DNA from: an uncultured Candidatus Saccharibacteria bacterium
GTDB lineage: Bacteria; Patescibacteriota; Minisyncoccia; Phycocordibacterales; JAKAEA01
Direction of reading: 5' to 3'
Length of the DNA: 64,000 nucleotides
NCBI GenBank assembly: GCA_964577595.1
Contig: CAZNZK010000001.1
Span: 208,144 to 272,143 of the forward strand
Shown: piece by piece, positions 33,201-59,276 of the stretch
Numbering within the stretch: the first letter of the stretch is position 1
How the letters are laid out: each line of letters begins with the position of its first letter
The notes under the pieces: generated by a model
What the model saw: the letters and a program-made list of their open reading frames with translations, nothing else
What the model was told of the DNA's origin: nothing
The model's database searches: none
Translations under genes and position numbers: made by a program

Positions 33201-36200
33201 GAGGAACCGCCCGTTGCGCTGTGGCCATCGTTTGAGGTGACGGTATAATACGAAATTGTTGAGCCGCCATAATTTACCGGTCCGGAGAAAGAGATTGTGG
33301 CCTCGCCAGGACTTTGTGTTGCCGTGCCAATGGTTGGAGCGTCAGGAACAGTCGCTGGCGTCACTGAATTTGAAACCGAAGAAGCGGTGCTTGTGCCGGC
33401 CGCATTCGTGGCAGTCACCGTAAACGTATAGGTGGTGCCATTCGTCAGGCCAGTAATTGTTACGGGCGAAGAACCGCCCGTGGCAGTGTGACCATCGTTG
33501 GAACTAACTGTGTAATAAGAAACTGTGGCCCCTCCATTATTTCCGGGAGCCGTAAAAGTAATGGTTGCTTGCCCGTTTCCGGAAGTAGCCGTGCCGATAG
33601 TTGGCGCATTCGGAGCCATGGCAGGAGTGACCGAGTTAGTCACGCTGGAAGCAGTGCTGGTACCCACGGCATTACTTGCTGAGACGGTGAATGTGTAGGT
33701 CGTACCGTTAGTGAGGCCGGTTATTGTTATAGGTGACGAACCGCCCGTGGCAGTGTGACCGTCATTAGAAGTGACAGTATATGAAGCCACAGTGGCTCCC
33801 CCATTATTTCCGAGTGTCGAGAACGAAATCGTGGCCTGCCCGTTTCCGCCAGCGGCAGTCACACCGCTAGGAGCATCTGGAACTGTAGCTGGCGTAACTG
33901 AATTTGAAACGGAAGAAGATGTACTGGTGCCCACACTATTAGTAGCGGTAACTGTGAATGTGTAGGTTGTACCGTTACTTAGTCCCGTAATAGTAATTGG
34001 GGATGAACCGCCGGTTGCCGTAAATCCGCCAATGTTTGAACTGACTGTGTAATACGTAATTGTGGAGCCTCCATTATTTCCGGGGGCCGAGAAAGAAATG
34101 GTAGCCTGACCATTGCCGCCAGTGGCGGGCCCAATTGTCGGCGCGTCGGGAACCGTTGTCGGCGTCACTGAATTTGAAACTGAAGAAGCTGTACTTGTGC
34201 CAACCGCGTTCGTAGCGGTCACCGTAAACGTATAGACCACACCATTAGTGAGGCCGGTCACCGTAATCGGCGAGGAACCGCCGGTTGCGCTGTGGCCGTC
34301 GTTGGAAGTGACGGTGTAGTACGAAATTGTTGAGCCGCCATAATTTACCGGTCTGGAGAAAGAGATTGTGGCTTCGCCAGGAGCTTCTGTTGCCGTTCCG
34401 ATGGTTGGAGCGTCAGGCGTCGTGGCCGGCACGACTGAACCGCTTGTGCCAGAAGGAGTACTTGTGCCAGCACCATTGGTCGCGGTCACCGTGAATGTGT
34501 AGGTCGCGCCGTTGGTGAGACCGGTAATGGTGATTGGTGAATTACCACCCGTCGCGGTGTGCGGTACGTCGGTCAGGGAATTGGAAGTGACGGTGTAATA
34601 GGTGATATTTGAACCATTGTTATTTGGCGCAGTGAACGTGACGGTGGCTTGGCCAGTGCCAGCAGTGGCAGAGACATTAGTTGGAAAATCTGGAGCCGCG
34701 GCGGGCATGACCGAATTACTTGTTCCCGATGAGGTGCTGGTGCCCACCGCATTGGTCGCGGTCACCGTAAACGTGTAGGTCGCGCCGTTGGTGAGACCGG
34801 TAATGGTGATTGGCGAATTACCACCCATCATAGTATGCGGTACATCGCTCAAGGAACTTGAGGTAACCGTGTAATACGAAATTGTTGAGCCGCCGTAATT
34901 TACCGGCCCGGAGAAAGAGATTGTGGCTTCACCAGGAGCTTCTGTTGCTGTTCCAATAGTTGGCGCGTCTGGAATGCTAATAGGTGTGACCGAATTACTT
35001 GTTCCCGATGAGGTGCTGGTGCCCACCGCATTGGTCGCGGTCACCGTAAACGTGTAGGTCGCGCCGTTGGTGAGACCGGTAATGGTGATTGGTGAAGTGC
35101 CACCAGTCGCGGTGTGCGGTACGTCGGTCATGGAGTTGGAAGTGACGGTGTAATACGAAATTGTTGAGCCGTTATTGGCTGGCGCGGTGAAGGTGACAGT
35201 GGCCTCGCCAGGACTTTGTGTTGCCGTTCCGATCGTCGGCGCGTCAGGAGAGGTAGCCGGCATGACCGAATTACTTGTTCCCGATGAGGTGCTGGTGCCC
35301 ACCGCATTGGTCGCGGTCACCGTAAACGTATAGACCACACCATTAGTGAGGCCGGTCACCGTAATCGGCGAGGAACCGCCGGTTGCGCTGTGGCCATCGT
35401 TTGAGGTAACCGTGTAGTACGAAATTGTTGAGCCGCCATAATTTACTGGTCCGGAGAAAGAGATTGTGGCTTCACCAGGAGCTTCTGTTGCTGTTCCAAT
35501 AGTTGGCGCGTCTGGAATGCTAATAGGTGTGACCGAATTACTCGATAACGAAGCACTGCTTGTGCCGATGCTATTTGTCGCGGTGACGGTGAAATAATAC
35601 GTTAGACCATTCGTAAGGCCCGTAATAACTATGGGCGATGCCCCACCAGTAATGCTATGCAAACCATCAGTAGAAGTGACGGTGTATGAAGTTATCGTCG
35701 AATAGCCATCATTAACGGGTGCGGTAAAAGTAACAATGGCTTCGCCAGGAGCTTCTGTCGCCGTTCCAATGATTGGCGCGTCCGGAGCGGTAGCGGGAGT
35801 GATTGGGAGTGAGGAAAGTGAGGGAGTGCTTGTTCCTACGCCGTTTGTCGCAGTGACGGTGAAGGTGTAGGTTGAGCCGTAGGTCAAGCCACTAATAGTT
35901 ATCGGTGAAGTGCCTCCACTCATAGTATGCGGAACATCACTCGTGGAATTGGAGGTTACGGTGTAGTACGAAATAGTGGAGCCGTTGCTGTTTGGATATG
36001 AAAAAGTAATCGTGGCTCCATCATCATTTCTGACTGCCGAAATAATTATCGGTTGGTCGGGAACGGTAGCTGGCATCACTGAAAGACTCGAACCTGAAGC
36101 GGTGCTCGTGCCAACCGAGTTGGTAGCAGTAACAGAGAAAGTGTACGTCGCGCCGTTAATCAAACCACCGATAGTGATGGGCGAAGCGCCTCCACTCATG

Positions 36201-39200
36201 GTATGCGGAGTATCACCCAAGGAGCTGGACGTCACGGTGTAGTACGAAATTGCGGAACCATTGTTGGCCGGTGTAGTGAACGTAATAGTAGCTGTGCCAG
36301 GACCCCCAGTAGCGGAGGTGATGACGGGAGCGTCTGGAGCAATAGCTGGCATCACGGAACCACTCGTGTTTGACATGGTACTGGTACCAACGCCATTGGT
36401 CGCAGTAACGGTGAACGTGTAGTTAACACCATTAGTAAGATTAATAATTGTAATTGGTGATGAGCCGCCGTACGCCGTGTCACCGTAATTAGAGGTGACG
36501 GTGTAATACGAAATAGTGGAGCCGTTATTGGCCGGTGTAGTAAAAGTGATGGTTGCCGAACCGGGGCCGCCAGTAGCGGAGGTGATGACGGGAGCGTCTG
36601 GAGTTGTGGCGGGCATAACAGAACCACTAGTGTTTGACATGGTGCTTGTGCCAGCAGAATTCGTGGCCGTCACCGTGAACGTGTAGTTAATACCATTGGT
36701 GAGATTGGTAATTGTAATTGGCGACGAACCACCGATTGCCGTGTCACCGTAATTAGAGGTGACGGTGTAATACGAAATAGTGGAGCCGTTATTGGCCGGT
36801 GTAGTAAAAGTGATGGTTGCCGAACCGGGGCCGCCAGTAGCGGAGGTGATGACGGGAGCATCGGGAACGGTGGCCGGCATCACGGAGTTGCTCGTGACCG
36901 AAGCCGTGCTGGTGCCGGTGGCATTAGTTGCTGTTACGGTAAAAGTGTATAGGACGCCATTAGTTAGGCCATAGATCGTAATTGGTGAATTACTGCCGGT
37001 TATTGTATGTGACACGTCGGCTAAAGAACTGGAAGTGACGGTGTAATAAGTGATAGCAGAACCACCAAGATTAGTCGGCGCTGTGAAAGTGATGGTAGCT
37101 TGGCCATTACCACCAACCGCGACAACGTTCGTCGGCGACCCTGAAACAGTTTGATAATCAAGATACGCATAAGTAGAGCTCGGAACAATATCCCAAATTG
37201 GCGTGGCAAAATCCCAGTTGGAATATGTGGCGAGCAACATCATTGAGTTGTTACTCTCGCTGTTCATACCGGAAGGATCCACAGCACCAGTGCCAAGACC
37301 GTTGTTGTGGAGCTTTCCAGAAGTGTCCGTATCCCAATAATCGGAAACATAGGTGCCGCCAGCACTGCCGGTCATACCGCCGACGTTGCGTACTCCCACC
37401 GTAGTACCATTCGCGCCGGCGCTACCGGTGCCACCCGCTCCACTACCGGTGCCAGTAGCACCACCCGCACCACCGAGAGCGGCAAGAGTGCTTGTGCCTG
37501 AAGGCGCGCCAATTGAATACGCGTTCGTAACCGTTGCAGTGTTGCTACCCATCAGGCCGCCGATGTATGCATTACCGCCGTTGCCGCCAGTGCCACCATT
37601 CAAACCGGCGCCAGCGGTACCCAATGTACTTCCGCCACCTTTAGCACCACCGGCGCCACCCTGGCCACCGTTGCCGCCTTTAGCGGCCAGGCCAGCAGTT
37701 GAGCTCGCGGTTCCTAATGCATAGGCATTAGTGATAGTTCCCGTATTTGTGCCGATTAAACCTCCGGCATACACATCACCGCCCGCGCCACCGTTGCCGC
37801 CGTTAGAACCATTCGTGGCCGGGCCACCGTTGCCGGTAGCGCCGGAGCCACCAACACCACCGTTGCCTCCTATGCCGCCAGTGGCGCCAACAATTCCATT
37901 GCCTCCAATCACCTTCACATTACCGGAAGCATAACTGGTGCTAATACTACCCGTTGAAATATTTCCGCCAACGAGCCCGCCGCCGTAGCTGAAGCCGCCA
38001 GTACCACCATTACCCTCTGTTACCACGCCACCACCAGTACCGCCAATGCCACCGCCACCTGTTCCGCCATTGCCACCAGTGCCAGCTACCCCAGCAAGAC
38101 CAGCCGCGCCACCGTTGCCGCCAACAATGGTAACGTTCCCCGCCGACCAGGAATATTGAATTATGCCCGCGGTGTAGTTATAACCGACTAGTCCCCCAGC
38201 GTAGGCCGCGCCGCCGTTGCCAGCCGCGGCAGTTGCTCCTTCTGCGCCACCCGTGCCACCAGCACCCGTTGCGCCGCCGTTGCCACCGACGCCACCTATA
38301 CCACCCGCGCCTCCGGCACCGCCGGTTGAACCATTAGCATTTACTGCTCCGATAGCATATGTCGTATATAAAGTACCTAAGTTATAGCCAGTAAAGCCTC
38401 CGGCATACGTGATACCGCCGTTAGTACCAGCGGTTCTACCCCCTGCCTGACCACCATTACTACCGTTGCTTGCGGAAGCGGCTGTGGTGGTACCTATACC
38501 ACCAGTGCCGCCAGCACCGCCAGCACCGCCAGCACCAGCAGTCGCCGTTACTGTTCCTAATGCATAAGAATCTTTAATAATCATGCCGGTAAAATTTTCT
38601 CCGGCAAAACCACCACCATAGACGATGCCAGCTGTGCCTGCGGCACCACCTGTTCCTCCAACGCCACCCTGGCCACCCACACCAACCGTGCCAACAAAAC
38701 CAGAAACGCCATTGCCACCAACACCGCCAGTACCGCCAGTGCCAGCAGTACCTGTGGCGTTATTAGTTGAATAAGAGTTGATCTCAATAAAACCATCGTT
38801 ATAACCAACAAAACCTCCTATATATAGAGCACCTCCCACGGCATTCGTGGCAGCAGAACCGCCGGTACCACCGCCACCGCCGATACCAACACTTCCAGCC
38901 GCGCCGCCGGTGCCGCCAGTACCTCCCGTGCCGCCGTTGCCGGCAATTCCAGTAACCGTTTGCCCAATAGCATAACTGGTGAGCGTTGTGTTTGTCGTGT
39001 CAATATTATTTCCAATCAGACCGCCGACATATGCCGCGCCGCCGGCGCCGGAAGCGCCTCCGTTGCCGCCCAATCCTCCCGCATGACCACCGACTCCCAA
39101 CGAGCCGTCACCACCCGTGCCGCCGTTACCGCCGGCGGCACCGTTGTTACCTATTGCCGTAACAGAACCGGCCGCGTACGAACTAATAATGACACCGTTG

Positions 39201-42200
39201 GCCGCGTTGTTAGCAACAAGGCCACCAGCATAAGCAACACCAGCGTTTCCACCGACGCCGCCCACGCCACCAGAAGCGGCCGTACCACCTGAAAGTGCTC
39301 CGCCAGTAGCGCCGCCCGTGCCACCAACGCCAGCCGTGCCCGCAGTGCCGCTAGTTGACGTGGCATTCCCTGTTGCATACGAAGTGTTTTCAATAATACC
39401 GGCGTTGGAACCGATTAATCCTCCCGCATAACTCGTGCCACCAGTGCTGGAAGTGCCACCAGTGCCGCCCGTGCCACCCTTGTTCAAAGATCCACCAAGA
39501 CCGCCAATAACCCCAGTAACTCCATTACCCGAAGAGCCGCCCGTGGCCACAACATTCTCGGTGGAATGACTACCAATAATAGAGAGATCCGTGTTTGCAC
39601 TCGCGCTTGTTTGGCCTATTAAGCCTCCGGCATAAGCGTTGCCACCAGCACCACTCGTACCACCAGCGAGCGTCCCGCCACCGGCAAATGCACCAGCACC
39701 GGCTCCAGAATATCCAGCACTACCACCCTGGCCGCCCTGACCACCCTTTGCTGAGACAATATTAGTTGTAGAGGTTGCGGCGGAATTCTGATAATTGCCA
39801 GTTCCACTTGTGACACTGCTGTACCCTACCAAGCCACCAGCATCAGCTTCACCACCTGCACCGCCGTTGCCGCCGACGCCACCGTTACCGCCAAGGGAAC
39901 TTCCTGTGCTACTGGCTGCATTACCGCCAACGTTTCCAATACTGCCAATTCCTCCAGTTGAACTGGCAAAACCAATCGCAAATGAATTTATAAAATTATT
40001 AATGCCGGTAGTGAACCTATTATTACCGATTAAACCTCCGGCGTAAGCGTTGCCACCCACGGCAGCCGCGACCGCGGCGGGACCGCTCACTCCAGTTACT
40101 GTTGTAGTTGAAAGACCGGCACTACCTGAAGAACCGGCCGTGCCGGCATTTCCTCCTAATGCTGAAACGTTGCCGAGAGCATAATCATTTAAAAAGTTGC
40201 CTGTGCCGGCTGCAAAACTACTGAAGCCTACGAGGCCACCAGCATCGGCTTCACCACCGACCCCAGCCACGCCGCCCAAAGCACCAGTCGATCCCACGTG
40301 CCCCGTTGTGCCATAAAAACCACTACCGCCGTTGCCACCAGTGCCACCGTTGCCACCGTTGCCGCCGACAATCGAGACTGTTCCAGTCGCGTAAGAATTT
40401 ACGACCTGGATAGTAAGTGCCGCTCCAGAAATAGTTCCTACTAAGCCACCGCCAAACACAACACCACCAGCTCCGCCTATTCCACCTGGAAACCCAGCAG
40501 CCGCCGTTCCACTTGAGGTTGTTGTTCCGGAAGTACCACCAGCGCCACCGTTGCCGCCAAGACCGCCGTTGCCACCCGTCATAAAAATAGTAACTAAAGA
40601 ATATGACGACTGCTGAATGACGCCCAAATCGTTACCGATAAGCCCTCCGAATTCTAACGTCCCAGAGTTGCCACCGTTGCCACCGATGAGTCCGACACCG
40701 CCGACGCTACTGCCAGCTCCCGCGCCACCATTGCCGCCGTTGCCACCAATACCGCCAGTTTGCTCAACACCCGTGATTGTCAGAGATTGCGAATACGAAG
40801 AAGAAACTGTTGCGGAACTATAGCCTAATAGTCCGCCAACAATAGCACCGTTTGTTGCCCCTCCGACAGCAGCTGTTGTACCGCCGACACCGCCGACACC
40901 GCCACTCACAACCGCCGAGCCGCCGTTGCCGGCATTACCGGCATTACCAGTGCCGCCGGTATTAATATAAATATTTCCCGCTCCGGAAATCGGATCAACA
41001 CTCGTCCACGAAGCAACGACGTCTGCCACCGTATAGCCCGCCAATCCACCAGCATATACAATTCCGGAAGCGCCACCAGCGCCGGCGTTAGAGCCAGCCG
41101 CTCCTCTATTAGCAACTCCACTAATACCGTTTGATCCATTTTGACCGGAGCCTCCGGCAATGTTAAGAGTTGTTTCGGAATACGATCCGTTCACTACGCC
41201 AGTACTGTAACCTACGAGCCCACCGGCATATACTGACCCGCCAGCGCCACCGGCACCGCCAGCGCCGGCAAGACCGCTCAAGCCGGTACCAGTTCCAATG
41301 CCACCTGTGCCTCCCTGAACAGATGCCCCACCGGCACCACCAGTAGCAGTGACCGTTCCCGACACGGCATACGAGTTGCTAATAGTCCCCGTTATATTTT
41401 GTCCGACGAGACCGCCGGCTTGCACTGCTGTTGCTGGTGGGCCAACACCGCTGGCACCAGGACCGCCCGCTCCACCGACGCCGCCAATGCCACCAGTTTG
41501 GTTGACACCGGCAGAACCATCACCGGCATTACCACCAATGCCACCCTGGCCGCCAATGCCACCAGTGGTTGAAGCATTCGCCATCGCATACGAATTATTA
41601 ATAATCGCTCCGGCTCCGGTATTTATTCCCACCAAACCACCAATGTTGACCGCGCCACCCGTGCCACCAAGGAATCCGGCACCGCCAGCTGCTGTGGTTG
41701 AGGCGGATAAAAATGCCCCGGAAGCGCCAGCGTTGCCGCCCGCACCACCAATACCACCGCTACCAACATTCGCCGTTACCATACCGAGAATATGATAGTC
41801 ATATTGCAGAGTACCTGAATTTGATCCAATCAAACCGCCGGTATAATTAACGCCACCGTTGTTGCCAGCTACCCCGTTGCCGCCAATGCCGCCTATAAAC
41901 TGGCCGTTACCGGCACCGCCAATACCTCCGGAACCGCTGTTGCCACCATTTCCTGAAGTTCCCGTAACAGCTCCGGTAGAATATGAACTGTCAATTTCGC
42001 CGGAAGTCACGAATCCAACCAGACCTCCCACGTAGACCGTGCCACCGAGACCGCCGGCAATTCCGGTGCCACCGTTGCCACCTGGATTATTAGCCCCAAG
42101 TCCACCCTTACCACCGTTACCTCCAATGCCAGCGTTACCAGCGGAGATGGAAACGGTTCCGGTGGCATAGGCATTACTGATAAAAATATTTGTGTTGGTA

Positions 42201-45200
42201 AATCCTACCAATCCTCCACCGTAAGCAAAACCTCCTGCGCCGCCACCGGCGCCGTTGCCGCCGTTGCCGCCCGACATTGTGGTTGTGGCGGTTGTGGTAC
42301 CGTCTCCACCTAAGGCACCGAAACTTCCCGTTCCACCAACCTGCCCTATAACTAAAATATTTCCCGTGGAAGAGGCGTTGCTAATAGTATCTCCGGTACC
42401 GCCAATATATCCAAAAAGACCGCCGACATATGTATAGGAACTGGCTGCGCCACCGGCACCACCCGCGCCGCCGTTGCCGCCCAAAGCTCCAACAGTTCCG
42501 TTAATCGCTGTACCACCGGTGCCACCCGTGCCGCCCGTCGCGTAAACATTGCTCGTTGAATAAACAGCATTAAATAAAAGATCATTGGTAGTATTGTTGT
42601 AGCCGGCGATACCTCCAACGTACACCGCCCCGGTTATACCACCACCACCGCCAGTACCGCCGGTGCCATTTCTACCTCCCAACCCACCAGCCGGACCGCC
42701 CGTGCCGCCCGTTCCACCCGTGCCACCGCCCGCGCCCAAAACCGCATTGATAGTTCCATTCTGGCTATTTGATGACAAAATATCTCCGTTGTCTTGACCG
42801 GCTAAACCTCCCATATATAGAGCACCACCGGTGCCACCCGTGCCGCCGGCACCGGCCGCACCACCGCTATGACCGTTGAGTCCTAATGTTCCATCACCAC
42901 CGTTTCCTCCTTGGCCAGCAGCAGCACCGGGTGTTCCATCTGCCGTCATACTGCCAACCACTATCACTGAAGAATTTATAATGACTCCCGGATTATCACC
43001 GGTAAGTCCTCCTATATATGTAGCGCCACCAACGCCGCCGTTGCCACCAGTGTTACCAGCACCTCCTGTGCCGCCAATAGCAGCACCGGAAGCTCCAGCC
43101 TTACCACCCGTGCCGCCAGCACCGGCCGTACCGCCATTAACTGAAATAGTAGTAACGGTGTACGTAACGCCACTAATGATACCCGTATTTGAACCGGTCA
43201 CCCCACCACCATACGCCGCGCCGCCGTTGCCGCCCGCACCACCAATGCCACCGGCACCACCGATAAATCCTGAGGTGCTTGTGGCATTTCCTCCGGCGCC
43301 ACCAGTACCACCATAACCTCCGAGGCCCCCAGTTGAATAAATTCCTCCCGTATTATTTGCCGTGCCTATTGTTGATCCAGCAACGCCGTTCCAAGCAACA
43401 ACACCACCAACATAGGTGGCCCCACCGTTGCCGCCAAGACCACCAACAACAGCGGCTTCGGATACTCCGTTGATACCCGTTCCGCTCGTGCCGCCATTTC
43501 CAGCATTACCGCCATAACCGCCGGTGCCACCGGTTGATGTAGCATTCCCCATCGCATAAGAATCAACACCCACCAACCCCAAGTTGTTTGCTATCAAACC
43601 ACCCGAGTAACTCGCGCCGCCCGTGCCGCCAGCACCGCCAATGTTGCCGGCACCACCGACAACTCCACCACCGGAGGAATTACCACCATTAGCGCCGGGA
43701 GCACCAGGAGCGCCAGTGCCGCCGGTTGAGCTTGCTGTCCCTAGTGCATATGAAAAATTTTGAACAATACCGTTGGCGCTGTTTTGCCCCAGCAAACCTC
43801 CGGCGTAGGCAGGGCCGCCAGCACGAGCAGTAATCAAAGCGCCAGTATCAAGCGCGCCGTTGGCACCGCCAGCCATACCAGTTGACCCACTACCACCAAG
43901 ACCGCCGGAACCAGGCGCGCCACCAGTACCACCGAGCGCGGAAACATTTCCTGTCGCATACGAATGATCAATAACGCCCGTGCTCAGCGCTACTAAACCC
44001 CCAGCGTAAGCGGTTCCGCCAAGACCACCGATCGCGCCGCCAGTGCCACCAGTGGCTCCAACGCCACCAGCACCGCCAGTGCCACCGTTTCCAGCATTGC
44101 CCGCTACTGATGTTACCGTCGCGGCGGCATAAGAATTTGCTTGAATAAAACCAGCTACGTTATTTCCCACCCCACCACCTGCATATGAAAACGCTCCCAG
44201 GCCTCCGGTGCCACCAGTGCCGCCGGCACCACCAAGAGCCCCACTGCCACCAATACCGCCGGCACCGCCGGTAGCTCCGTTGCCACCAGAACCAGCGGTA
44301 GCGGTTACGGAACCGGCAGAGATATATGAATTGGTAATTGTTGAAGAGTTGTATCCGGCAATACCTCCGCCATAAGCCGCGGCTCCGGCACCACCCGTAC
44401 CGCCCTGCACTCCGGAAGCGCCAACTTGACTCGCGCCTCCCGTAGAACCATTACCGGCTGCTCCGGCAGCTGCTCCGGGTTGGCCAGAAACTGAAAGAGC
44501 AATAACCGTGGTTGACGCGGTTGAGCTGGCAATAATAGTGGTGTTATATCCCACCAATCCACCAGCGTAAGCAATAGCACCAGTACCACCAGTACCGCCA
44601 GTGCCACCCGCCGCGGCAGTAGCAGCAATAGTTCCGGTAGTGGTGCCGGCCCCGCCACCCGCGCCACCTAAACCAGGAATACCTGAGGTTGACGTGACAT
44701 TTCCAATAAAATTATTTCCACCCTGGACGATGCCGGCACTATCTCCAATAAGCCCGCCGGCGTAAGATACGCCGGCAGTGCCGCCCGTTCCACCACTGCC
44801 ACCGACACCGCCGATAGAGTTGGTACCGCCAGCTCCGCCACTGCCACCATTGCCAGCATTGCCACCCTGACCACCGTTCGCAATTATGGATCCAGTTGAT
44901 GAGGCTGTTGTTACTGTGCCGGCAACAAAGTTTCCGATTACTCCTCCACTGAAGGCGTTGCCACCCGTGCCGCCGCCAAGACCACCCAGCCCGGCGCCGC
45001 CGGTAGTTGACGTTGCCGTTCCACCAGCTCCGCCATTACCACCAACGCCACCCGCGCCGCCGTTCGCGGTTATGGTGCCAATTGAATATGAACTTAGAAT
45101 ATCTCCGTTATTTTGATCACCGACAACTCCGCCAACATATGCAACACCGCCAGTTAAGCCGGCGCTACCAGCAACACCGGACGTGCTCGTCGTTCCCACA

Positions 45201-48200
45201 CCACCATTTGCTCCGGCACCACCAGCTCCGGCTGTGCCTGTGAGGTTCGCCAAAAAATAACTACTCGTAATAGTTGGCCCTGAGTTGTAACCGGTAATTC
45301 CGCCAGCGTAAATAATCGCGCCGATAATCGCCGTGCCGGCAGCACCAGGCGTGCCACCAGTGCCGCCAGGCCCCGCGCCGCCGACACCGGCAGCGCCACC
45401 CGCTCCGGCTATTCCGGAAATATTTCCCGTCGTATGATAGCTGTTCGTAATAATATTGGTATTATTGCCGGATATTCCTCCTATATATAGAACGCCAGCG
45501 GCGCCGCCCGTGCCGCCACCGACGCCAGCATAGCCGAGCAAGCTCGCCGCGCCCGTTCCTCCGGTGCCACCGGTGCCACCATTAGCCGAGAGTGCATTTT
45601 GAGAAAATGAGTTTTGAATGGTTCCCGTATTGCTTCCGACAAGCGCGCCCGCGTAAGTTGCTGTTCCGTTAGCGGAACCTCCCGTGCCTGAAGTGCCACC
45701 CGTGCCGTTTGCGGCGCCGGATGTGCCTTTAGCACCGCCAATTCCGCCCGTGCCACCCATGCCACCATTGCCGCCCGTCACCGTAACAAGCCCCGCAGTG
45801 GAATCAGCCATACTAATAAGTCCCGCGTTTAATCCCACGAGACCACCGGCATATGCAGCGCCACCAACGGCACCGTTCGCCGCATTGCCGCCATTGCCGC
45901 CGCTCGCCGCCGTACCACCCTGGCCGCCCGCGCCGCCATTGCTACCATTCTTACCAGCAGATCCTGTGGCCGTTACGGCACCGCTTGCATATACAGTACT
46001 TGTTGCCCCGGTGATAATTCCATCAGCACTATTTTGCGCTACTAAGCCTCCGGCATAAGCAATAGCTCCAGCACCACCAATGGCACCGGCGCCACCGCCT
46101 AGGGCAGTCGCTGTTGATGCGGCCGCACTGGTACTGGCCATGCCACCGGCAGATGCATTACCCGCAATGCCGGCAAGTGACTGCACCGTGCCGGTAGCGT
46201 ACGAACCGGTCTCAATAGTTCCTAAATTGTTTGCCACCAAGCCACCGGCAAATGAGTTGCCACCCGCGCCGCCAACAGCACCGTTGCCGCCTGCACCGCC
46301 AGTAGCAGCCACGTTGCTGTTACCACCCTGCCCGCCCGTACCGGCAATTCCCGCCACGCCGCCAGCGCCACCATAGGCCGTAACATTTCCAGTTGCCGCG
46401 GAAGCCATAATCGTGCCAGTGTTGAGCCAGCCAATCAAGCCGCCGACATAGCTAATGCCACCAGCACCGGGAATACCAACACTGCCTCCACCACCGCCTG
46501 TTCCCGTGCCGAAGTTCATACCACCATTGCCACCGTTACCACTGGCGCCGCCCGCGCCGCCGCTACCAATAACCGCAACCGTGCTCAACGCGTTCGTGAT
46601 ACTACCTTGTGCAGACCACCCAACCAGACCTCCAATATAAACGACGCCACCAGTGGCACCGGCATTCGTTGGCGTCGTGCCTCCCACACCGCCAGTGTTA
46701 GCAAAACCAGCCGGAGTATCACCGCCGTTACTCGCGTTTCCTTCAGTACCGCCCGCGCCGCCCGCGCCAGTTACTGTTCCAGAGATATTAATATTTGAAA
46801 TTGTTCCGGCGTTATAGGCGACCAGGCCGCCGACATAAATGTTGCTACCCGCGGTACCGGCAGAGTTGTTATTACCAGGAGTGCTTGTCGCCACGGCTGC
46901 GGCATTAGCGGTACTCAAGCCCGGCGTGCCTGTCGCCGAAATAAGTAAATTTGCCAGAGTGAGATTTTGAATGTTACTGCTGTTATATCCAAAAAGACCG
47001 GCGTAGGTTATGGAGCTTGAAGCAATAAATAAGTTGCTGACCGTAAATCCATTACCATTGAAATTTCCCGTGAAGCTTGTCGTGTTATTTCCTATCGGCA
47101 CAAAACCACTGCTTGAATTCCAGGATGAAGTCACGGTCGCGTCAACACTGCTGTTAAGCTGGTAAGAACTCGTCAGGTTGGTTTTGACCCCCTGCAAGCC
47201 ATAGACGTCATAAATTATATACGGATCATTCGTTGAGCCGATACCGGTGTACCTTCTAAACGTACCGGCATTGATGGCAAAATTATTGCCGACGGAAAAA
47301 TAGTTGTTGGCAGGATTCCCGACCGTGAGAGTAGCAAAGTAGGTGCCGGAGTTTTGAATAAAATTGTTTGTAATCGCCAGGTTGGCGTTCTGGTTGATGC
47401 TTCCGGCGAAGCCGTTTATGGAGAATGAACTGATAGTTGAAGAAGCATCAATTGTCACAATGGAGGAAGCGATTCCGGAGTTTCCATCAAAAATGACCGT
47501 AGTTGTGGTACCAGGCGCATTCACGGTGCTGGTGAAAGTGGCACCGGAGGAAGTCGCCCAGTGAGTGCCACCGACATCCGACCAAAGCCCCGTGCCATTA
47601 ACCCAATAAGCAGTAGCCGGAGGAGTCACCGGGTCAACGATGTAGTCAATGTCTATGTTTCCGGAAATTCGCAAATCAAAAAGGTCGGTCGGTGTTTGCA
47701 AGTCGGGCATCAGAATCCGATACTTTCCTTCCTGATTAATTTGAAATGTTGCGTGGAGCGCGTCGCCTTCCGTAGTACTTCCTTCGGCGTCAGTATATAC
47801 CGGGTACACGGTTATTGAACCCGTCTGGCTCGCATCGTCCGCTTTGGCATAGAGTGTGACGTCGTTTGTGTTGTTCAAAATTTGATCAAACGTGACCCGG
47901 ACAGATTGGCCGGAAGCGATGGTAGCGTAGTTTCCATCTTGCGCCTGCACGAGGCTATAAATATCACCGATCGGGTTAAGATTCGCGTCCAACTGCAAGG
48001 CTTTGGAAATGTAAATAATTTGAAATGTTTGAGTTGAAAGGTGCGGCACAATCCACTGAAGGTGATCAATGTACCCATTGCCATCTTCATCAAGCGCGGT
48101 AAATTGCATTGGTTGACCGCCATTGTTCGCCCAATTTATTTTAATTTGATTTTCTTGACCCACTTTAAAGAGTTCTGGAATAGTAATGGTGACCGGTACG

Positions 48201-48850: not shown

Positions 48851-49028
48851 GGAACAAGTAGAAAAAGAGAGAACCGTACTGGTAATAATAGCGGTAAAAC
48901 CACTAAACTTAAATAGAAAATTGAAGCATTTCTGTTGATAACTTTGCCTTCCTCACAAAAAAAGTTGGTCTTTTTCAAAATTTCCCCAAAATAGTATTGA
49001 ATAAAAATTAAATACGTGTCACAATACC

Positions 49029-49051
49029 AAGTGTCGGGTTATCCGACACTT
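49029..49051. promoter_or_regulatory. Perfect 9-bp inverted repeat (aagtgtcgg gttat ccgacactt) in the divergent intergenic region between the giant gene and the wHTH regulator. Candidate operator.
   Basis: Read directly from the sequence. It sits 12 nt upstream of the regulator start codon and within the upstream region of the giant gene. Confidence 0.4.
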
Positions 49052-49062
49052 TATTTTTCTCC

Positions 49063-49470
49063 ATGTTTACGAAAGAACAAAAAAATATTTTAGGAATTTC
49101 CGTAAAAGAAAATAAAGTGTTAGCTTCGCTGAAAAAGAGCAAAAGTATTTTTACGTTGAGTAAAAATGTAAAAATTCCCCGCGCTTCTCTCTACCCTATC
49201 ATTCAAAAACTCTTTCAACGCGGCTTTATCCGATCTAAGAGCGTTGGCAATAGATTCCATTTTCAAGCCATTTCTAAGGAAAATCTCAGCGAAATGTTGG
49301 CAAAAATTGCCATAGAATTACGCGAGTCAATTGAGCCGGCAAAGATCGTTCTACAAAAGCCAGAAATACTAACTAAGATTGAAATTCCCCCAACGCCAGC
49401 GTTGCCCCCCACTGTTACCGCCCCTAAACCAAAAAAAATATCAACATGGTTGAAATCTATTTTTAAGTAG
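49063..49470 (+). CDS. Putative winged-helix transcriptional regulator (TrmB/MarR-like HTH), divergent from the giant gene.
   Basis: N-terminal ILGISVKENKVLASLKKSKSIFTLSKNVKIPRASLYPIIQKLFQRGFI resembles a wHTH. Low GC. No strong motif match. Confidence 0.45.
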   Translation: MFTKEQKNILGISVKENKVLASLKKSKSIFTLSKNVKIPRASLYPIIQKLFQRGFIRSKSVGNRFHFQAISKENLSEMLAKIAIELRESIEPAKIVLQKPEILTKIEIPPTPALPPTVTAPKPKKISTWLKSIFK

Positions 49471-49474
49471 CATG

Positions 49475-49726
49475 TTAAAAACTGCCCAGTAATTTCTCTT
49501 TTTGAGCCTTAGTTAGAGCCTTTATTTCTCCCTCGCGCCTGAAAGCGGCCGTTCTAGTGGCGCATTTTTCCGTATATACAAGCACAACCGGCTGGCGGCT
49601 TCTTGTGTATTTTGCTCCGCCCGCCAATAAACCATTGTGCTGTTTAAGCCGCTTCTCTATGTTTGGAGTGATGCCCGTATATAAACTACCATCGGCACAG
49701 CGAACTATGTACGCGTAATAGTCCAT
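49475..49726 (-). CDS. GIY-YIG nuclease family protein (UPF0213-type).
   Basis: YYAYIVRCADGSLYTGIT...RL.QHN motif. Confidence 0.8.
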   Translation of the reverse strand: MDYYAYIVRCADGSLYTGITPNIEKRLKQHNGLLAGGAKYTRSRQPVVLVYTEKCATRTAAFRREGEIKALTKAQKEKLLGSF

Positions 49727-49738
49727 TGACTGCCGCTA

Positions 49739-50323
49739 TTAGCTAACGAGCACCGCCGTCACCACAAGACGATCGTTATAGGTACCGGTCTGCGGCAAAT
49801 AGGTGCCATAGCAGGTAATAATTTTAAGAAGCGGCTGGCCGCTGTCGGCGAAAATCTGGCCGCTGGGAAAAGCGCTGACGCTGTAAATATCGAGAGAAGT
49901 AACTTTAAAATGAGAGACGCCACCAAGCACATTGGTTACGTAAATATCGTCGCCAGCAACCAGGGTGTGGAGATTTTTAAAAACGCCGGGAATAGCGGCA
50001 CCGTTATCAACGTGGCCGTCAATTACCGCACTGCCTATGCCGCCAACCACGGGCCCACGGTCATACCAACCGGCCTGCACGAAATTGTGTGGCACATCAA
50101 GTGCACCAGCCGGAGTAATATCAACAGGCACAATTGAAGCCCGCTTGCCAATTTGCGGAATGAAAAGCGAGGCCGGAGCGCCGGCTACGGGCCCGATAGT
50201 AGCCGGCGTATTTTGGGCATAAGCCGGAGAAATGGTTAGAAAAAAGCCGCCGAAAGCCACGGATGTGGTAACGACGAGCACAAGTGAAGTGCGAGCGATA
50301 CTGGCGCGAAATGAAAGTTGCAT
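49739..50323 (-). CDS. Sortase-family transpeptidase (class E/F-like) with an N-terminal TM.
   Basis: His region GSAVIDGHVD. Catalytic-Cys context LLKIITCYG (TLxTC-like). Followed by conserved R (NDRLVV). Confidence 0.7.
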   Translation of the reverse strand: MQLSFRASIARTSLVLVVTTSVAFGGFFLTISPAYAQNTPATIGPVAGAPASLFIPQIGKRASIVPVDITPAGALDVPHNFVQAGWYDRGPVVGGIGSAVIDGHVDNGAAIPGVFKNLHTLVAGDDIYVTNVLGGVSHFKVTSLDIYSVSAFPSGQIFADSGQPLLKIITCYGTYLPQTGTYNDRLVVTAVLVS

Positions 50324-50418
50324 AAGAGTTGAAATATGGCTTAAATAAAAGGTTTTTAAACGAATACAAAGATATTTTAGCACGAAAAAATAGGTGTGTA
50401 AAGGGCTTCGGTTCGAAA

Positions 50419-51903
50419 TTATTTCTCCAAATCTAACACCTCGTCAATGCGGATTTTGGCGACGAAATCGGGGACGTGGCTGACGAGAATCATGGCGCCG
50501 GCGAAAGTATTGAGGGCCTCCGCAATAACAGGCAAATGGCGGAAGTTGATATGGTTGGTGGGCTCGTCTAAAATGAGGAGGCCGGGCTTTTGCAAAACGA
50601 GGCGGGCGAAAGCCACCAAGCCTTTTTGACCCTCAGAAAGATTACCAATTTTTGTATGAATCATGTCGCCAGTAATAAGAAAACCAGCGGCCACCGAGCG
50701 CAATTCCTGTTCAATAATTCGCCCTTCAACCGTGCGCAAAACGCCTTCAAGCGACTGGTACACTGTGTCCTCAAAATTCAGAGTTGAAAAATCTTGGCGA
50801 TAATAGCCGATACGAATGCCATCCTGGACCATCGTGCCCTCGGCATGGCCAGAAGCGAGCGCTTCCAAGAGGGTTGTTTTACCAATGCCATTCGGCCCGC
50901 GCAACAAGAGGTGCTGATTTTTCTTAATCGGCATATTCACTTTTCTTTTGACCGGCTTATGATTCTTAAAAATTGTAAATGAGGAAATTTTCATAACCTC
51001 ACCAAAAACGTCCTTTTGAGCTGGGATAGTAAAAGGGCGAATGGCTTTGTCTTCCTTGCGCACGTCCACCTTTGCCTCCTCAAGCTCATCGGCTTTGTCG
51101 CGCATACGCTTAGCCACTAAGCGCATCTGGCCACCCTTATTGGCAAAAAAGTTGGCCTTGTCTTTATTTTCTTGAATTTCCTTGGCCAGCTGAGCATTTT
51201 TGCGATTTTCCTTTTCCATACGCGCGGTGATTTGCTCGCGGACGTCAAAATAGTTGCCCACATACTGCTCAATTTTTTTGGTGAACACGTCCAAATAAAG
51301 CACGCCGTCAGTGAAAGAATTTAAAAAATCAGCATCGTGCGAAATAACCATACAGCTTTTTCTATAGGCCTTCAAAAACGCCGTGAGGTGTGTAATGCCG
51401 GCAGCGTCTAAGTTATTCGTCGGTTCATCAAGCAAAAGAAGGTCAGGGTCGGCAATAAGTGCCGAGGCCAGCAAAAGCCGCGCTTGCTGACCGCCAGAAA
51501 ACGACTTCACCGTGCGCTCGTGCAATTTTTCATGGCCTTTCAAATTAACCACTTCAAGCACATCGTCAATGCGCGGGTCAATGTCGTACACCTTCCCTGC
51601 TTGAGCGCCTTCCATAGCCTTTTCAAAAAATGCCCGCACCGTAAGCCCCATTTCATCGCGTGGAATGACCTGCCGGGCTATGGCAATGCTTATACCCTTC
51701 GTAATATGCACCTCACCTGCTTCAGGCCTTAGAAGGCCCAAAATGAGCTGAAAAAGGGTGCTTTTGCCGGCACCATTCTGACCCATGATGGTTATTTTGC
51801 TCCCCCGCCGTACGTTAAAATCAACCCCATTAAGAAGCTGGCGATTCACCCCATATTCAAAACTCACCCCCTCAAAGCGGAGTATCGTGGCATCAGCGGA
51901 CAT
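50419..51903 (-). CDS. ABC-F family ATPase (two tandem ABC domains, no TMD; EttA/Uup-like translation factor).
   Basis: Two Walker A motifs (GQNGAGKST, GPNGIGKTT) and two signature motifs (FSGGQQARL, LSEGQKGLV), with a charged linker. Confidence 0.85.
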   Translation of the reverse strand: MSADATILRFEGVSFEYGVNRQLLNGVDFNVRRGSKITIMGQNGAGKSTLFQLILGLLRPEAGEVHITKGISIAIARQVIPRDEMGLTVRAFFEKAMEGAQAGKVYDIDPRIDDVLEVVNLKGHEKLHERTVKSFSGGQQARLLLASALIADPDLLLLDEPTNNLDAAGITHLTAFLKAYRKSCMVISHDADFLNSFTDGVLYLDVFTKKIEQYVGNYFDVREQITARMEKENRKNAQLAKEIQENKDKANFFANKGGQMRLVAKRMRDKADELEEAKVDVRKEDKAIRPFTIPAQKDVFGEVMKISSFTIFKNHKPVKRKVNMPIKKNQHLLLRGPNGIGKTTLLEALASGHAEGTMVQDGIRIGYYRQDFSTLNFEDTVYQSLEGVLRTVEGRIIEQELRSVAAGFLITGDMIHTKIGNLSEGQKGLVAFARLVLQKPGLLILDEPTNHINFRHLPVIAEALNTFAGAMILVSHVPDFVAKIRIDEVLDLEK

Positions 51904-51944
51904 AGGAACTCTAGAGTAGCGTCTTCTGACCGAAAAGGAAAGCT

Positions 51945-52541
51945 CTAACTAAGCGCCTTGTATACCTGCATGCCAAGGATGGAGCCGAGAATTGGCGCGA
52001 GAATATAGACCCAGCTGAAGGAATTCAGGGCGAGCGCAACTGCCGGGTTGAGAATGCCAGCCGAGCCGGCAATGCCCGCGATGAGTGCGCCTAGAGTGAG
52101 CGAGCCGCCGATAACCAAGCCACTTGCCGCAGGCGCTACTTTGCCGTACATAACCGAAGCGATGCCAAAGGTAAAGAGGAATGTGCCGATAGTTTCGGCC
52201 ACAAAGGGGATCAGCGTGAAGGCGCTGGTGGCCCCAGTAACATGAAAATTGAAAACAAGCGTTCCAACCGCGAGGGCGATTGCGGCGCCAAAAAACTGGA
52301 AAACAATGTAGCCAATGGCGTCTTTGAGGGAAATCTTTTTAATGGAAAGCGCGCCGAGAGTAACTGCCGGGTTAATGTGGCAACCAGAAATTGCCCCAAT
52401 GCTGTACACACAGAGGCCCAGCGCCAAGCCAGCAATAACCGGCACCGCAAGCGGGCTACCCGCGCCCGCGACAACTCCAAGAAACACCGCAAAAGCCAGA
52501 GCAAACGTACCGATACTTTCCGCAATATATTTTTTCATCAT
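51945..52541 (-). CDS. MIP-family aquaporin/glycerol facilitator.
   Basis: Two NPA boxes: SGCHINPAVTLG and GILNPAVALA. Six TM segments. Confidence 0.8.
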   Translation of the reverse strand: MMKKYIAESIGTFALAFAVFLGVVAGAGSPLAVPVIAGLALGLCVYSIGAISGCHINPAVTLGALSIKKISLKDAIGYIVFQFFGAAIALAVGTLVFNFHVTGATSAFTLIPFVAETIGTFLFTFGIASVMYGKVAPAASGLVIGGSLTLGALIAGIAGSAGILNPAVALALNSFSWVYILAPILGSILGMQVYKALS

Positions 52542-52600
52542 AAGGAAATGGTACTAGCGACTAATGAGATAAGTATAGCATCACGACCTGAAAATCAAAC

Positions 52601-53577: not shown

Positions 53578-53595
53578 ATACTACTTTAAAAAGTT

Positions 53596-53916: not shown

Positions 53917-53917
53917 T

Positions 53918-58183: not shown

Positions 58184-58223
58184 CAGAAAGAGAGTATACC
58201 AGAATTATTGCCAAAAATCTTGG

Positions 58224-59254: not shown

Positions 59255-59276
59255 GCAGAAAAATCTGCTTATTTGA

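Follow-up and report, generated by a model that had tools for sequence, protein, structure and literature searches.

The glycine-rich region of the 64,000-nt stretch of DNA analysed here (the window) probably encodes the central, rod-shaped part of a very large fibre that is secreted to the cell surface, which would be dockerin-anchored and built as a composite GLUG/PPII rod. In both the ORF list and the translation, the whole glycine-rich stretch lies inside a single minus-strand reading frame. The earlier note described it as coding sequence, which is borne out, and gave coordinates (37410-47070) that are correct to within about 150 nt at either end; it overlooked the larger protein of 6,183 aa, equipped with FN3 and dockerin modules, in whose middle the region lies. 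The modules follow in the order signal peptide, T/S-rich linker, head, GLUG N-cap, 50 composite units, GLUG C-cap, about 23 FN3 domains, small domain, Gly20 linker and type I dockerin. The source is an uncultured and ultra-small bacterium, and the closest named homologues come from CPR/Patescibacteria (Pacebacteria, Staskawiczbacteria). The features are as follows.

30299..48850, minus strand: giant ORF, the whole surface protein, 6,183 aa (ORF list and translation; an ENA contig carries a gene of the same length).
48758..48850, minus strand: probable Sec signal peptide, aa 1-31 (...FFPLRSLA/DD), read from the translation.
48251..48757, minus strand: Thr/Ser/Asp/Pro-rich low-complexity linker, aa 32-200 (T 24.5%, S 15.5%, D 10.5%, P 9%).
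47615..48250, minus strand: N-terminal 'head' domain, aa 201-412, recognised by its conservation in databases.
47006..47614, minus strand: lead-in region and canonical GLUG N-terminal cap, aa 413-615 (...RRYTGIGSTNDPYIIYDVYGLQ...GNGFTVSNLFI), recognised by recurrence before GLUG arrays.
37265..47005, minus strand: repeat array of 50 composite units of ~66 aa, aa 616-3862 (anchors, alignment, periodicity, column frequencies, orthologue conservation and AF2 of four units).
37136..37264, minus strand: GLUG C-terminal cap, aa 3863-3905, containing WDFATPIWDI and placed after the YVSDYWDTDTSGK... motif with which the last unit ends (by-eye comparison).
30935..37135, minus strand: ~23 fibronectin type III (FN3) domains, aa 3906-5972 (Pfam fn3, E = 5e-175, 23 stretches).
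30593..30934, minus strand: short C-terminal domain, aa 5973-6086 (translation).
30533..30592, minus strand: 20-residue poly-glycine linker, aa 6087-6106.
30302..30481, minus strand: type I dockerin, aa 6124-6183 (Pfam Dockerin_1 at 46.9 bits, cutoff 22.9, E = 3e-12).
29627..30292, minus strand: downstream gene 1, 221 aa, with signal peptide, predicted cohesin-fold ectodomain and C-terminal transmembrane helix (AF2 and Foldseek).
27910..29640, minus strand: downstream gene 2, 552-576 aa, with paralogous cohesin-like N-domain, Ig-like stalk, transmembrane helix and cytoplasmic coiled tail.
37353..37724, 41349..41795, 42876..43316 and 45684..46058 (within 37353..46058), plus strand: antisense shadow ORFs, not genes, in one antisense frame.

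The array is a repeat core of 3,250 residues, with 48 full units and a degenerate first and last one, making 50 where 49 had been counted before. The 50 anchors are spaced 65.4 +/- 4.1 aa apart. Measured against shuffles, residue autocorrelation shows peaks at lags of 66, 67 and 133 (z = 8.8, 7.1 and 6.4) and, at short range, at lags 3, 6 and 9 (z = 14.7, 11.9 and 10.6), and the hydrophobic power spectrum has its maximum at 66.3 aa. The periodicity therefore survives alignment. Gly-Gly co-occurrence at lags 3, 6 and 9 is 1.63, 1.50 and 1.46 times chance expectation. Each unit consists of a diverged GLUG core, YxGGLxGxNxGxIxxSYxxGxV (~26 aa), and, in fixed phase behind it, a (GGx)5-loop-(GGx)5 tail (~37 aa), in which one run of about five triplets stands on each side of a short variable loop and x is N, A or T. 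In the unit alignment, Gly has a frequency of 57-89% at the G columns and of 0-6% at the x columns. The Gly-triplet tail is the novel part of the unit. The regular GLUG core reported previously is thus real, but a single kind of repeat is not, since each composite unit joins a GLUG coil to a putative Gly-triplet hairpin. Mean identity between units is 39%, and DNA-level similarity is absent. About nine distinct orthologues are all collinear with the array; alignment with orthologues gives 54% identity on the diagonal versus 36-38% when shifted by one or more units. The array is ancestral, in keeping with the old, diverged duplication that had been proposed.

Residues 616-3862 (nt 37265..47005) comprise 34.5% Gly, 13.9% Ala and 10.9% Thr, with Pro at 0.8% and nearly no charged residues. 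GGN makes up 34.5% of the codons, and the share of G is 56% at the first codon position and 38% at the second. GC skew on the plus strand is -0.19 to -0.27 between 38 and 47 kb and +0.14 to +0.22 where the gene encodes the FN3 domains; as it flips inside one gene, it stems from amino-acid composition. The GGN dominance and strand skew noted before are both confirmed. The four plus-strand ORFs that had been named as proline-rich shadows all exist, and because they share a single antisense frame and 33-39% Pro, mirroring GGN, they are indeed shadows and not genes.

GLUG motif domains (Pfam PF07581) occur in streptococcal IgA1 protease/M26 peptidases and in many large bacterial and archaeal surface proteins. 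A search with a profile of the unit, a check proposed in the earlier note, returned 14,240 proteins, the best matches covering profile positions 1 to ~31; all five that were checked are strong Pfam Glug proteins (147-323 bits), which upholds the GLUG core. The Pfam Glug model placed one of ten array slices above its cutoff and gave no match to the whole array region, and this poor detection counts against the explanation preferred here. Residues matching positions ~337-441 of the query recur ahead of GLUG arrays at 58 genome loci spread over many phyla of bacteria and archaea, and the N-cap segment is also present in P0096 and P0178. The FWDT...SG...WDF...W motif seen here, compared by eye, also closes the arrays of P0096, P0001, P0052, P0086 and L075. 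Core spacing in the 150 best profile matches has medians of 26-35 aa, save for one TPS-secreted protein at 44 aa. Among the cap-sharing genome loci with enough measurable cores, only the orthologue L002 has a spacing of 64 aa (35% Gly), and ten metagenome loci that cover the N-terminal region in full, one of them identical to L002, have 63-64 aa and 32-38% Gly. Judging from these searches, the 66-aa composite unit appears to be restricted to the giant protein and its orthologues (about nine distinct sequences on genome and metagenome contigs).

The structure prediction suggested for a fragment of 3-4 repeats was run with AF2 on four units and gave a model with a pLDDT of 80.6 and a pTM of 0.73. 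Its strands were confined to the GLUG cores, parts of the tails exceeded a pLDDT of 90 with no DSSP structure, and one third of the residues lay at 50-70. The underlying alignment was shallow, 11 of its 12 rows being paralogous segments of the giant protein itself, and AF2 is known to draw polyglycine II (PGII) where repeats are rich in Gly; the model therefore cannot serve as independent evidence of PPII tails. The best PDB matches were the PPII-bundle antifreeze proteins 7jjv, 3bog and 2pne (springtail/snow-flea), and they were weak (E = 6.5e-4, probability 0.47, TM 0.1-0.3). Double-layer PPII sheets with inward-facing Gly are known from (Ala-Gly-Gly)n and (Pro-Gly-Gly)n peptides (bioRxiv 10.1101/2023.11.25.568672), and PGRS GGA/GGN domains have been modelled as PGII sandwiches (PMC9436101). 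In the arrangement we favour, the GLUG cores would be stacked as right-handed beta-helix coils, as in canonical GLUG domains, and every coil would carry a Gly-triplet hairpin of two antiparallel PPII helices. Neighbouring hairpins could pack along the helix into a continuous two-layer sheet, with Gly inside and x outside. The product would be a stiff, almost uncharged rod, about 25 nm long or longer, with a fast-evolving face decorated by N, A and T.

The tails might instead be intrinsically disordered or elastic spacers between isolated GLUG beta-hairpins, comparable to silk and plant Gly-rich GGX sequences, so that the region would act as a flexible entropic tether. We consider this unlikely, although it would fit the lack of regular DSSP structure in the tails, the third of the model at low pLDDT, the weak fold matches and a composition of one third Gly with scarcely any charge. 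Disordered linkers usually tolerate indels and drift in length, whereas across the eight other orthologues, at 46-59% identity, gaps amount to 1.3-1.4% within the runs of triplets and to 5% within the loop, and unit lengths correlate with those of L002 (r = 0.82; 43 of 49 within 3 aa). The tail G positions are 78% conserved in these orthologues and the x positions, nearly devoid of Gly within the array, 25%; x positions are the most variable sites of the unit, and Gly positions and run lengths are kept. Such conservation, with about 1% indels, favours a folded, surface-variable structure over a floppy linker. Moreover, canonical GLUG coils pile directly upon each other, and lone 26-aa coils would probably be unstable.

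The earlier note had suggested a repetitive beta-solenoid or fibre. If the whole 66-aa unit were an ordinary beta-solenoid, the Gly part would add one or two coils (~2.5 coils per unit) with no PPII. In its favour are the beta-helical nature of GLUG domains, a unit length of 66 aa that equals about 2.4 canonical coils of 27 aa, and the existence of Gly-rich beta-rolls, but we judge this reading quite improbable. The AF2 strands are restricted to the cores, the strict three-residue phase with two Gly per triplet is a PGII/PPII signature rather than the two-residue alternation of beta structure, and both the Pfam Glug model and the canonical GLUG matches align only to profile positions 1 to ~31. 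A solenoid or fibre as such is plausible; beta strands in the Gly tracts are not what the model indicates. It is very improbable that the GGx runs form intermolecular collagen-like triple helices in a trimeric fibre. Gly does stand at every third residue, and the best fold matches in a viral library were exclusively collagen-like; these were insignificant, however (E >= 3e-3, TM <= 0.2), Pro is scarce, the runs of ~5 triplets are broken each 66 aa by a beta core, and two Gly per triplet favours sheets over triple helices (10.1101/2023.11.25.568672).

The glycine-rich region is a genuine assembly and not a misassembly. Independent assemblies match it at 99.7-100% wherever they have coverage: ERZ27245386 is 100% identical across 40419..61903, a gene of identical length (6,183 aa) is called in ERZ27245399, from which 6.7 kb was fetched and found 99.9% identical, and a Logan contig is 100% identical through the 4 kb covered. 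No DNA self-matches were found within the array, so the chimera that had been raised as a concern is not seen. That the region is low complexity without true repeats, a chimera, or non-coding DNA with the plus-strand ORFs as real genes can practically be dismissed: misassembly is frequent in repeat-rich genes and one assembly ends within the giant gene, but it does so at aa 4656, in the FN3 array and outside the glycine-rich one, the frame is open and collinear through ~3,700 aa in about nine orthologues, and the plus-strand ORFs are short Pro-rich mirror images.

The N-terminal segment has a basic N-region, a hydrophobic core and an A-x-A-like cleavage site, and is probably a Sec signal peptide. 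The linker behind it is poorly conserved and indel-rich against an orthologue (39% identity, 55 gap columns). Searches of Pfam, NCBIfam and PDB sequences returned no match for the head. Its conservation extends to 34 database proteins and to at least 110 metagenome loci, and GLUG arrays are absent from many of these. FN3 units are 88-93 aa long, with a mean identity of 69% and a maximum of 92%. Residues 5973-6086 yielded no significant Pfam family beyond the adjoining fn3 and dockerin, and the L064 homologue likewise has a poly-Gly run ahead of its dockerin.

In translation, the dockerin shows both of its calcium loops of the DxNxDxxxDxxD type intact, DFNHDGRVDAID and DINHDNKVDSID. Downstream gene 1 begins 6 nt past the stop codon of the giant gene. 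Its AF2 model (pLDDT 90.7, pTM 0.86), compared with the PDB by Foldseek, has cohesin modules as the listed top matches (49 at E <= 1e-3; best E = 7e-6, probability 1.0, TM 0.6-0.7); the Pfam Cohesin model gave no sequence match to the downstream proteins. The N-domain of gene 2 is 32% identical to gene 1 (E = 3e-8), and gene 2 has a weak Big_13 Pfam match and 47% identity to its syntenic L064 counterpart. The cassette of a dockerin-ended gene and both cohesin-like genes is syntenic in another organism. The giant protein appears to be held to the cell by a dockerin-cohesin clasp, whereby after Sec export the C-terminal dockerin would bind the predicted cohesin-fold ectodomains of both membrane proteins whose genes lie immediately downstream. 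FN3 stalk and rod together would project the N-terminal head ~100 nm off the cell, with attachment to a host cell or surface as the likely role; the protein is most likely a long cell-anchored adhesion fibre. A sortase adjoins the locus and has no place in this explanation.

The protein shares with canonical GLUG domains the core YxGGLxGxNxGxIxNSYxxGxV, the N-terminal cap DPYxIxxxxxL...FxGxFdGnGxxIxNL and the C-terminal FWDxxxSG...WDF cap. Unlike canonical arrays, with a 26-35 aa period and 11-25% Gly, it has a 66-aa period, 34.5% Gly and an extra ~37-aa Gly-triplet hairpin predicted at every coil, and the Pfam model scores it at or below threshold. The nearest intermediate is P0096, TPS-secreted, with 44-aa units and a shorter Gly/Tyr-rich insert. 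Gly-rich PPII bundles (7JJV, 3BOG, 2PNE; phage gp38 tip; Obg N-domain) resemble it in being the best structural matches to the AF2 model, and triplets that are two-thirds Gly would be expected to form PPII sheets of two layers (10.1101/2023.11.25.568672). Those bundles are stand-alone domains of 6-13 helices, whereas here ~100 predicted helix-length segments would be spread along a beta-helix, and the matches have a TM of only 0.1-0.3.

The Gly tracts had also been likened to mycobacterial PGRS and YadA-like scaffolds. The PGRS likeness holds for the motif, in the phase-locked GGA/GGN/GGT triplets, with ~3-6 triplets per helix-length segment and short joining loops (PMC9436101), and for the variable x side chain and surface exposure, the surface location being predicted here. 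It does not extend to identity: a PE_PGRS protein was rejected on the lack of a PE domain, the Sec-type signal peptide and the CPR (Patescibacteria) homologues, and there is no ESX-5 context or mycobacterial host. The triplet hairpins here alternate regularly with GLUG beta cores, and the array is evolutionarily stable, its units collinear from one species to the next, in contrast to the high polymorphism described for PGRS domains (PMC9436101). The YadA comparison fails, with no Pfam YadA feature in the giant protein and a dockerin, not a membrane anchor, at its C-terminus.

As in cellulosomal and non-cellulosomal cohesin-dockerin systems, a type I dockerin with both calcium loops accompanies adjacent membrane-anchored cohesin-fold proteins, with synteny kept. 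Unlike in those systems, the cargo has no carbohydrate-active enzyme or CBM; the cohesins are recognised by predicted fold and not by the Pfam model, their binding is predicted, and each is anchored by a single C-terminal transmembrane helix in place of SLH domains or sortase. Giant dockerin-type proteins are also described from Omnitrophota, ultra-small bacteria, and these too are very large, repeat-rich and extracellular, with cell attachment proposed for both (bioRxiv 10.1101/2023.11.21.568195). They belong to another phylum and have another repeat chemistry, GLUG being unmentioned there, and those of 30,000 aa or more far exceed the 6,183 aa of the protein described here.

The Gly-rich stretch at 37410..47070 is contained in one minus-strand ORF (30299..48850, 6,183 aa), whose parts are, from the N-terminus:

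aa 1-31: signal-peptide-like segment, Sec type by appearance
between this segment and the head: linker rich in T, S, D and P
47615..48250, minus strand (aa ~201-412): conserved head domain
37265..47005, minus strand (aa 616-3862): array of 50 units
30935..37135, minus strand (aa 3906-5972): FN3 array of ~23 units (Pfam fn3, E = 5e-175, 23 stretches)
between the FN3 array and the poly-Gly linker: small domain
30533..30592, minus strand (aa 6087-6106): 20-residue poly-Gly linker in mixed GGN codons, directly before the dockerin
C-terminus: type I dockerin (Pfam Dockerin_1, 46.9 bits vs a cutoff of 22.9), both calcium loops intact (DFNHDGRVDAID and DINHDNKVDSID)

Anchored on the GG[LIV] core, the 50 units follow each other at a spacing of 65.4 +/- 4.1 aa and align cleanly across the array. 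The regular repeat proposed in the earlier note was thus found in the alignment, in the residue autocorrelation (z = 8.8, 7.1 and 6.4 at lags 66, 67 and 133, relative to 200 shuffles) and in the power spectrum of hydrophobic residues, which peaks at 66.3 aa. The same autocorrelation has a short scale, with z = 14.7, 11.9 and 10.6 at lags 3, 6 and 9. The consensus unit has a core, YxGGLxGxNxxGxIxxSYxxGxVxxx, followed by GGxGGxGGxGGxGGxG, a loop of xxxxx, GGxGGxGGxGGxGG and a final xx, ie by the column statistics the tails are (GGx)5G and (GGx)4GG, x being N, A or T. Within the triplet runs Gly occupies 57-89% of the G columns vs 0-6% of the x columns, which are mostly N, A or T. Pairs of Gly at lag 3 are 1.63 times as frequent as chance would give, and a crude run-finder located two runs of 3-6 triplets in 33 of 48 units. 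The tail pattern is phase-locked and is not plain low complexity.

Gly, Ala and Thr account for 34.5%, 13.9% and 10.9% of aa 616-3862, and charge is nearly nil (D+E 1.6%, K+R 0.5%). The dominance of GGN codons described from the sequence is therefore real: they are 34.5% of the total (GGT 439, GGC 440, GGA 195, GGG 46), and G fills the first codon position in 56% of codons and the second in 38%. So is the strand skew, the plus-strand GC skew being -0.19 to -0.27 at 38-47 kb and +0.14 to +0.22 at 31-37 kb, where the reversal corresponds to the Thr/Ser/Pro-rich FN3 part of the same gene. The skew results from the amino-acid composition of the encoded protein and not from replication. Over 31000..47000 the cumulative GC skew peaks sharply, as a local maximum, at ~37 kb within one gene, solely because the codons switch from GGN-rich to ACN/TCN/CCN-rich, and skew-based callers of origins and termini would be fooled at this point. 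Four Pro-rich ORFs do exist on the plus strand, as had been noted, all in a single antisense frame with 33-39% Pro. As shadow ORFs they mirror the GGN codons in this Pro content, and they were ruled out as genes. The lesson for annotation is that amino-acid composition alone can flip the GC skew within a gene and create long antisense ORFs. Scans for promoters and terminators gave chance-level results only.

Pfam detects the relationship of the array to GLUG weakly. Pfam and NCBIfam gave no match to the uncut array (a 3,301-aa region), and it had to be sliced for scoring with Pfam Glug (PF07581, gathering threshold 20.5 bits). Ten slices of 330 aa gave three scores (24.2, 20.2 and 12.7 bits), the remaining seven having no match; other fragments of 300 aa scored 12.9-21.5 bits. 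The Pfam Glug model and the composition filters of HMMER thus nearly overlook a GLUG-derived domain of 3,250 residues, which is a second lesson for annotation. A profile built from 48 units and run against 1.84 billion representatives retrieved 14,240 proteins at E <= 1e-3, of which 634 reach E <= 1e-30. They match over profile positions 1 to about 31, ie the core, and the five that were checked score 147-323 bits with Pfam Glug. The N-cap (aa ~537-640; RRYTGIGSTNDPYIIYDVYGLQ...GNGFTVSNLFI) was located by tblastn ahead of the GLUG arrays of 58 genome loci, which span many phyla of bacteria and archaea, and by eye the array ends in the usual (F/Y)WDxxxSG...WDF cap, shared with the database proteins P0096, P0001, P0052 and P0086 and with the locus L075. 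(An apparent stop codon in L079, a locus nearly identical to L075, was rejected as the end of the gene, being a frameshift relative to L075.) Because of the profile matches and both caps we read the cores as diverged GLUG coils in a canonically capped domain, in agreement with the GLUG core named in the earlier note. A homologue search with four units returned one fragment only and missed the query itself, as Gly-rich words swamped the selection of candidates. Neither the cap plus six units nor the head domain nor the unit profile had a significant match among PDB sequences, where IgA1 protease scored no better than E = 2.6, and a literature search on the GLUG motif found almost nothing.

Canonical GLUG domains have one motif per ~27-aa coil, in contrast to the period of 65.4 +/- 4.1 aa observed here. 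The 150 best profile matches (of 14,240) have a median core spacing of 26-35 aa and 9-25% Gly, and genome loci with the same cap mostly have spacings of 27-38 aa. The exception among the 150 is P0096, a protein with a TPS domain (two-partner secretion) whose GLUG units, of ~44 aa, each carry a shorter Gly/Tyr-rich insert (…AxGGxGG…GGDA); it may be an independent or intermediate instance of Gly-rich insertion in GLUG coils.

Unit-to-unit protein identity averages 39% with a maximum of 63%, neighbouring units are hardly more similar to each other than units far apart, and there are no DNA self-matches within the array at E <= 1e-10, all as expected of the old, diverged duplication that had been proposed. 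The FN3 array is far more homogeneous (mean identity 69%, maximum 92%; DNA self-identity 66-70%), and no part of the gene is less certain than the copy number of this array, because another assembly breaks there. The latter, ERZ27245386, has a contig identical (100%) over 40419..61903, which stops at aa 4656. In ERZ27245399 a gene of 6,183 aa is likewise called, and the 6.7 kb retrieved is 99.9% identical; two further contigs, covering 2-4 kb around the 3' end of the gene, have identities of 100% (Logan) and 99.7% (JGI). Misassembly was ruled out on this concordance of independent assemblies over the parts covered. Neither a loss of periodicity on alignment nor a chimeric assembly, the two observations that the earlier note named as fatal to its reading, was found, and we put the probability that this is a real gene carrying a GLUG-derived array at about 95%.

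Only one of the measurable cap-sharing genome loci, L002 (uncultured bacterium, bin AM-2014_bin-3837), has a comparable unit, with 64-aa spacing and 35% Gly. Scanning metagenomes with the N-terminal region gave at least 110 loci, and ten of those with a full-query match and enough downstream sequence have spacings of 63-64 aa and 32-38% Gly; one of these, L066, is identical to L002. There are thus about nine distinct orthologues including L002, with 46-87% identity, all collinear over ~3,700 residues. The database fragments P0151-P0153 are also related, and one is labelled Candidatus Pacebacteria. A genome of Candidatus Pacebacteria is assigned by NCBI taxonomy to the phylum Minisyncoccota, the current name of CPR/Patescibacteria. 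The composite unit represents an elaboration of GLUG specific to this lineage, kept in a small family of CPR proteins. In L002 (9113..21328) the collinear array of ~50 units is followed by W(R/S)SVxYGNGIFVAVAS... repeats in place of FN3, so the module between rod and anchor is swapped between species while head and rod are retained.

Aligned on the diagonal, the protein and its L002 orthologue are 54% identical, vs just 36-38% when shifted by one or more units, so the array of ~50 units predates the split of the species and escaped homogenisation. Unit lengths in the two are correlated (r = 0.82) and agree within 3 aa in 43 of 49 units. Conservation was also computed by class of position.

Conservation of position classes over 8 other orthologues
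Tail G positions: identity 78%, gaps 1.3%
Tail x positions (triplet runs): identity 25%, gaps 1.4%
Loop (profile positions 43-47): identity 39%, gaps 5%
Core (profile positions 1-26): identity 54%, gaps 0.6%

Fixed length and phase combined with hypervariable x positions are what packing with Gly inside and x outside would predict, and not what a disordered spacer would. Four units were modelled with AF2 from a 12-row alignment (the query, ten non-overlapping four-unit segments of the same protein and P0151), giving pLDDT 80.6 and pTM 0.73. Strands are confined to the GLUG cores, with 3-4 per core, and the tails include blocks above pLDDT 90 to which DSSP assigns no structure. The top fold matches in the PDB are antifreeze proteins with bundles of polyproline-II (PPII) helices, and are weak (E = 6.5e-4, probability 0.47, TM <= 0.31). 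Both (Ala-Gly-Gly)n and (Pro-Gly-Gly)n assemble into PPII sheets of two layers that have Gly facing in (10.1101/2023.11.25.568672), and PGRS domains of GGA/GGN type have been modelled as sandwiches of polyglycine-II (PGII) helices with 3-4 triplets per helix (PMC9436101). This literature supports PGII hairpins as the structure of the tails, which we consider slightly more likely than not. Each unit would then comprise one beta-helix coil and one antiparallel PGII hairpin, the hairpins stacking along the helix.

A bolder extension, which we consider rather unlikely, is a previously undescribed hybrid fold in which every beta-helix coil extrudes a PGII hairpin and ~100 PPII helices zip into a continuous two-layer sheet of ~25 nm. 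Its hypervariable, uncharged N/A/T face would be the working surface, shown by an ultra-small CPR bacterium via a private cohesin-dockerin clasp. If true, this would far exceed every other natural PPII assembly in size and be the first beyond the handful of known bundle families, and the N/A/T-studded face could bind, for example, a host-cell envelope, a polysaccharide or even ice.

The head domain has no Pfam or PDB match and is an unannotated, widespread surface module of CPR bacteria. Copies were found at no fewer than 110 metagenome loci, and 34 database proteins have one as well. Most are fused to bodies without GLUG motifs, and some adjoin other Gly-rich or Ig-like modules. At the other end of the protein, the dockerin has candidate partners in the next two genes. 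The first (221 aa) begins 6 nt downstream, and its product carries a signal peptide and, at the C-terminus, a transmembrane helix. Its ectodomain was modelled by AF2 with pLDDT 90.7 and pTM 0.86, and the top matches listed by Foldseek against the PDB are cohesins (49 matches at E <= 1e-3, probability 1.0, TM up to 0.70). Pfam Cohesin (PF00963) gave no sequence match to the downstream proteins even at E <= 10. The product of the second combines an N-domain paralogous to the first (32% identity, E = 3e-8) with an Ig-like stalk and a transmembrane helix. In L064, a locus from another organism, a poly-Gly and dockerin gene is followed by homologues of both proteins (44% and 47% identity), and this conservation of the three-gene cassette supports cohesin-dockerin anchoring. 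The homologous L064 gene has a poly-Gly run and a Pro/Thr linker ahead of its dockerin. We consider anchoring of the giant protein by predicted cohesin-dockerin binding probable.

Other loci in the window are:

900..4665: low-GC block (0.41-0.43 vs ~0.50 elsewhere)
2074..3126, plus strand: replication initiator of Phage_CRI/G2P type (E = 6e-18)
3137..4618, plus strand: large serine recombinase, its end adjoining or overlapping tRNA-Val
4591..4665, minus strand: tRNA-Val
17030..17962, minus strand: ORF for a secreted Gln/Pro/Cys-rich protein, GC 0.60; its middle resembles a coiled coil, and no Pfam family matches
49063..49470, plus strand: divergent TrmB-like regulator, between the sortase and the giant gene, with a small GIY-YIG ORF
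49739..50383, minus strand: sortase, just upstream of the giant gene

The block at 900..4665 resembles an inovirus-like element integrated at a tRNA gene. Scanning for LPXTG revealed no such signal in the giant protein and no convincing sortase substrate in the window. The LPTTN of a cohesin-like protein was rejected as a sorting signal, since it is 15 residues from the transmembrane helix and not conserved in homologues.

In the mechanism we propose, Sec would export the giant protein and the membrane cohesins would capture its dockerin. The head, borne on the FN3 stalk (~80 nm when extended) and the GLUG/PGII rod (~24 nm, assuming one 4.8 A coil per unit), would then stand well away from the cell and could attach to a host or surface, as would fit episymbiotic CPR bacteria. 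An adhesive function is conceivable at a little under even odds. The protein is a candidate organelle of host attachment, with a predicted cohesin-dockerin anchor encoded in adjacent genes, in bacteria about whose surface biology little is known.

The Gly tracts had been likened to mycobacterial PGRS. The tandem GGA/GGN triplets of PE_PGRS proteins are indeed matched by the tails, but membership was rejected: PE_PGRS proteins have an N-terminal PE domain and ESX-dependent export, whereas aa 1-640 contain no Pfam family and the N-terminus is Sec-like, and PE_PGRS are mycobacterial whereas the named homologues here are from CPR bacteria. The suggested likeness to YadA adhesins did not hold, as Pfam finds no YadA head, stalk or anchor family anywhere in the protein, and its C-terminus is a dockerin. 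A collagen triple helix was rejected on the low Pro content (0.8% of the array), the runs of 3-6 triplets with two Gly each and the absence of Pfam Collagen. The proposal of a fibre is supported. To our knowledge, Gly-rich PPII-helix assemblies come from just a few small natural domains, and the array family would exemplify the natural grafting of PPII sheets onto another fold. Mycobacterial PGRS structure is still only modelled, because the proteins are hard to produce. The present arrays, being stable, collinear and non-polymorphic, would offer a tractable system in which to test for PGII sheets in GGA/GGN repeats if each Gly-triplet hairpin is paired, as predicted, with a well-behaved beta-helix coil, and the hybrid fold, if true, would make them a stable non-mycobacterial counterpart of PGRS. 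What is new here is a GLUG beta-helix with a predicted, PGRS-like Gly-triplet hairpin in every coil.
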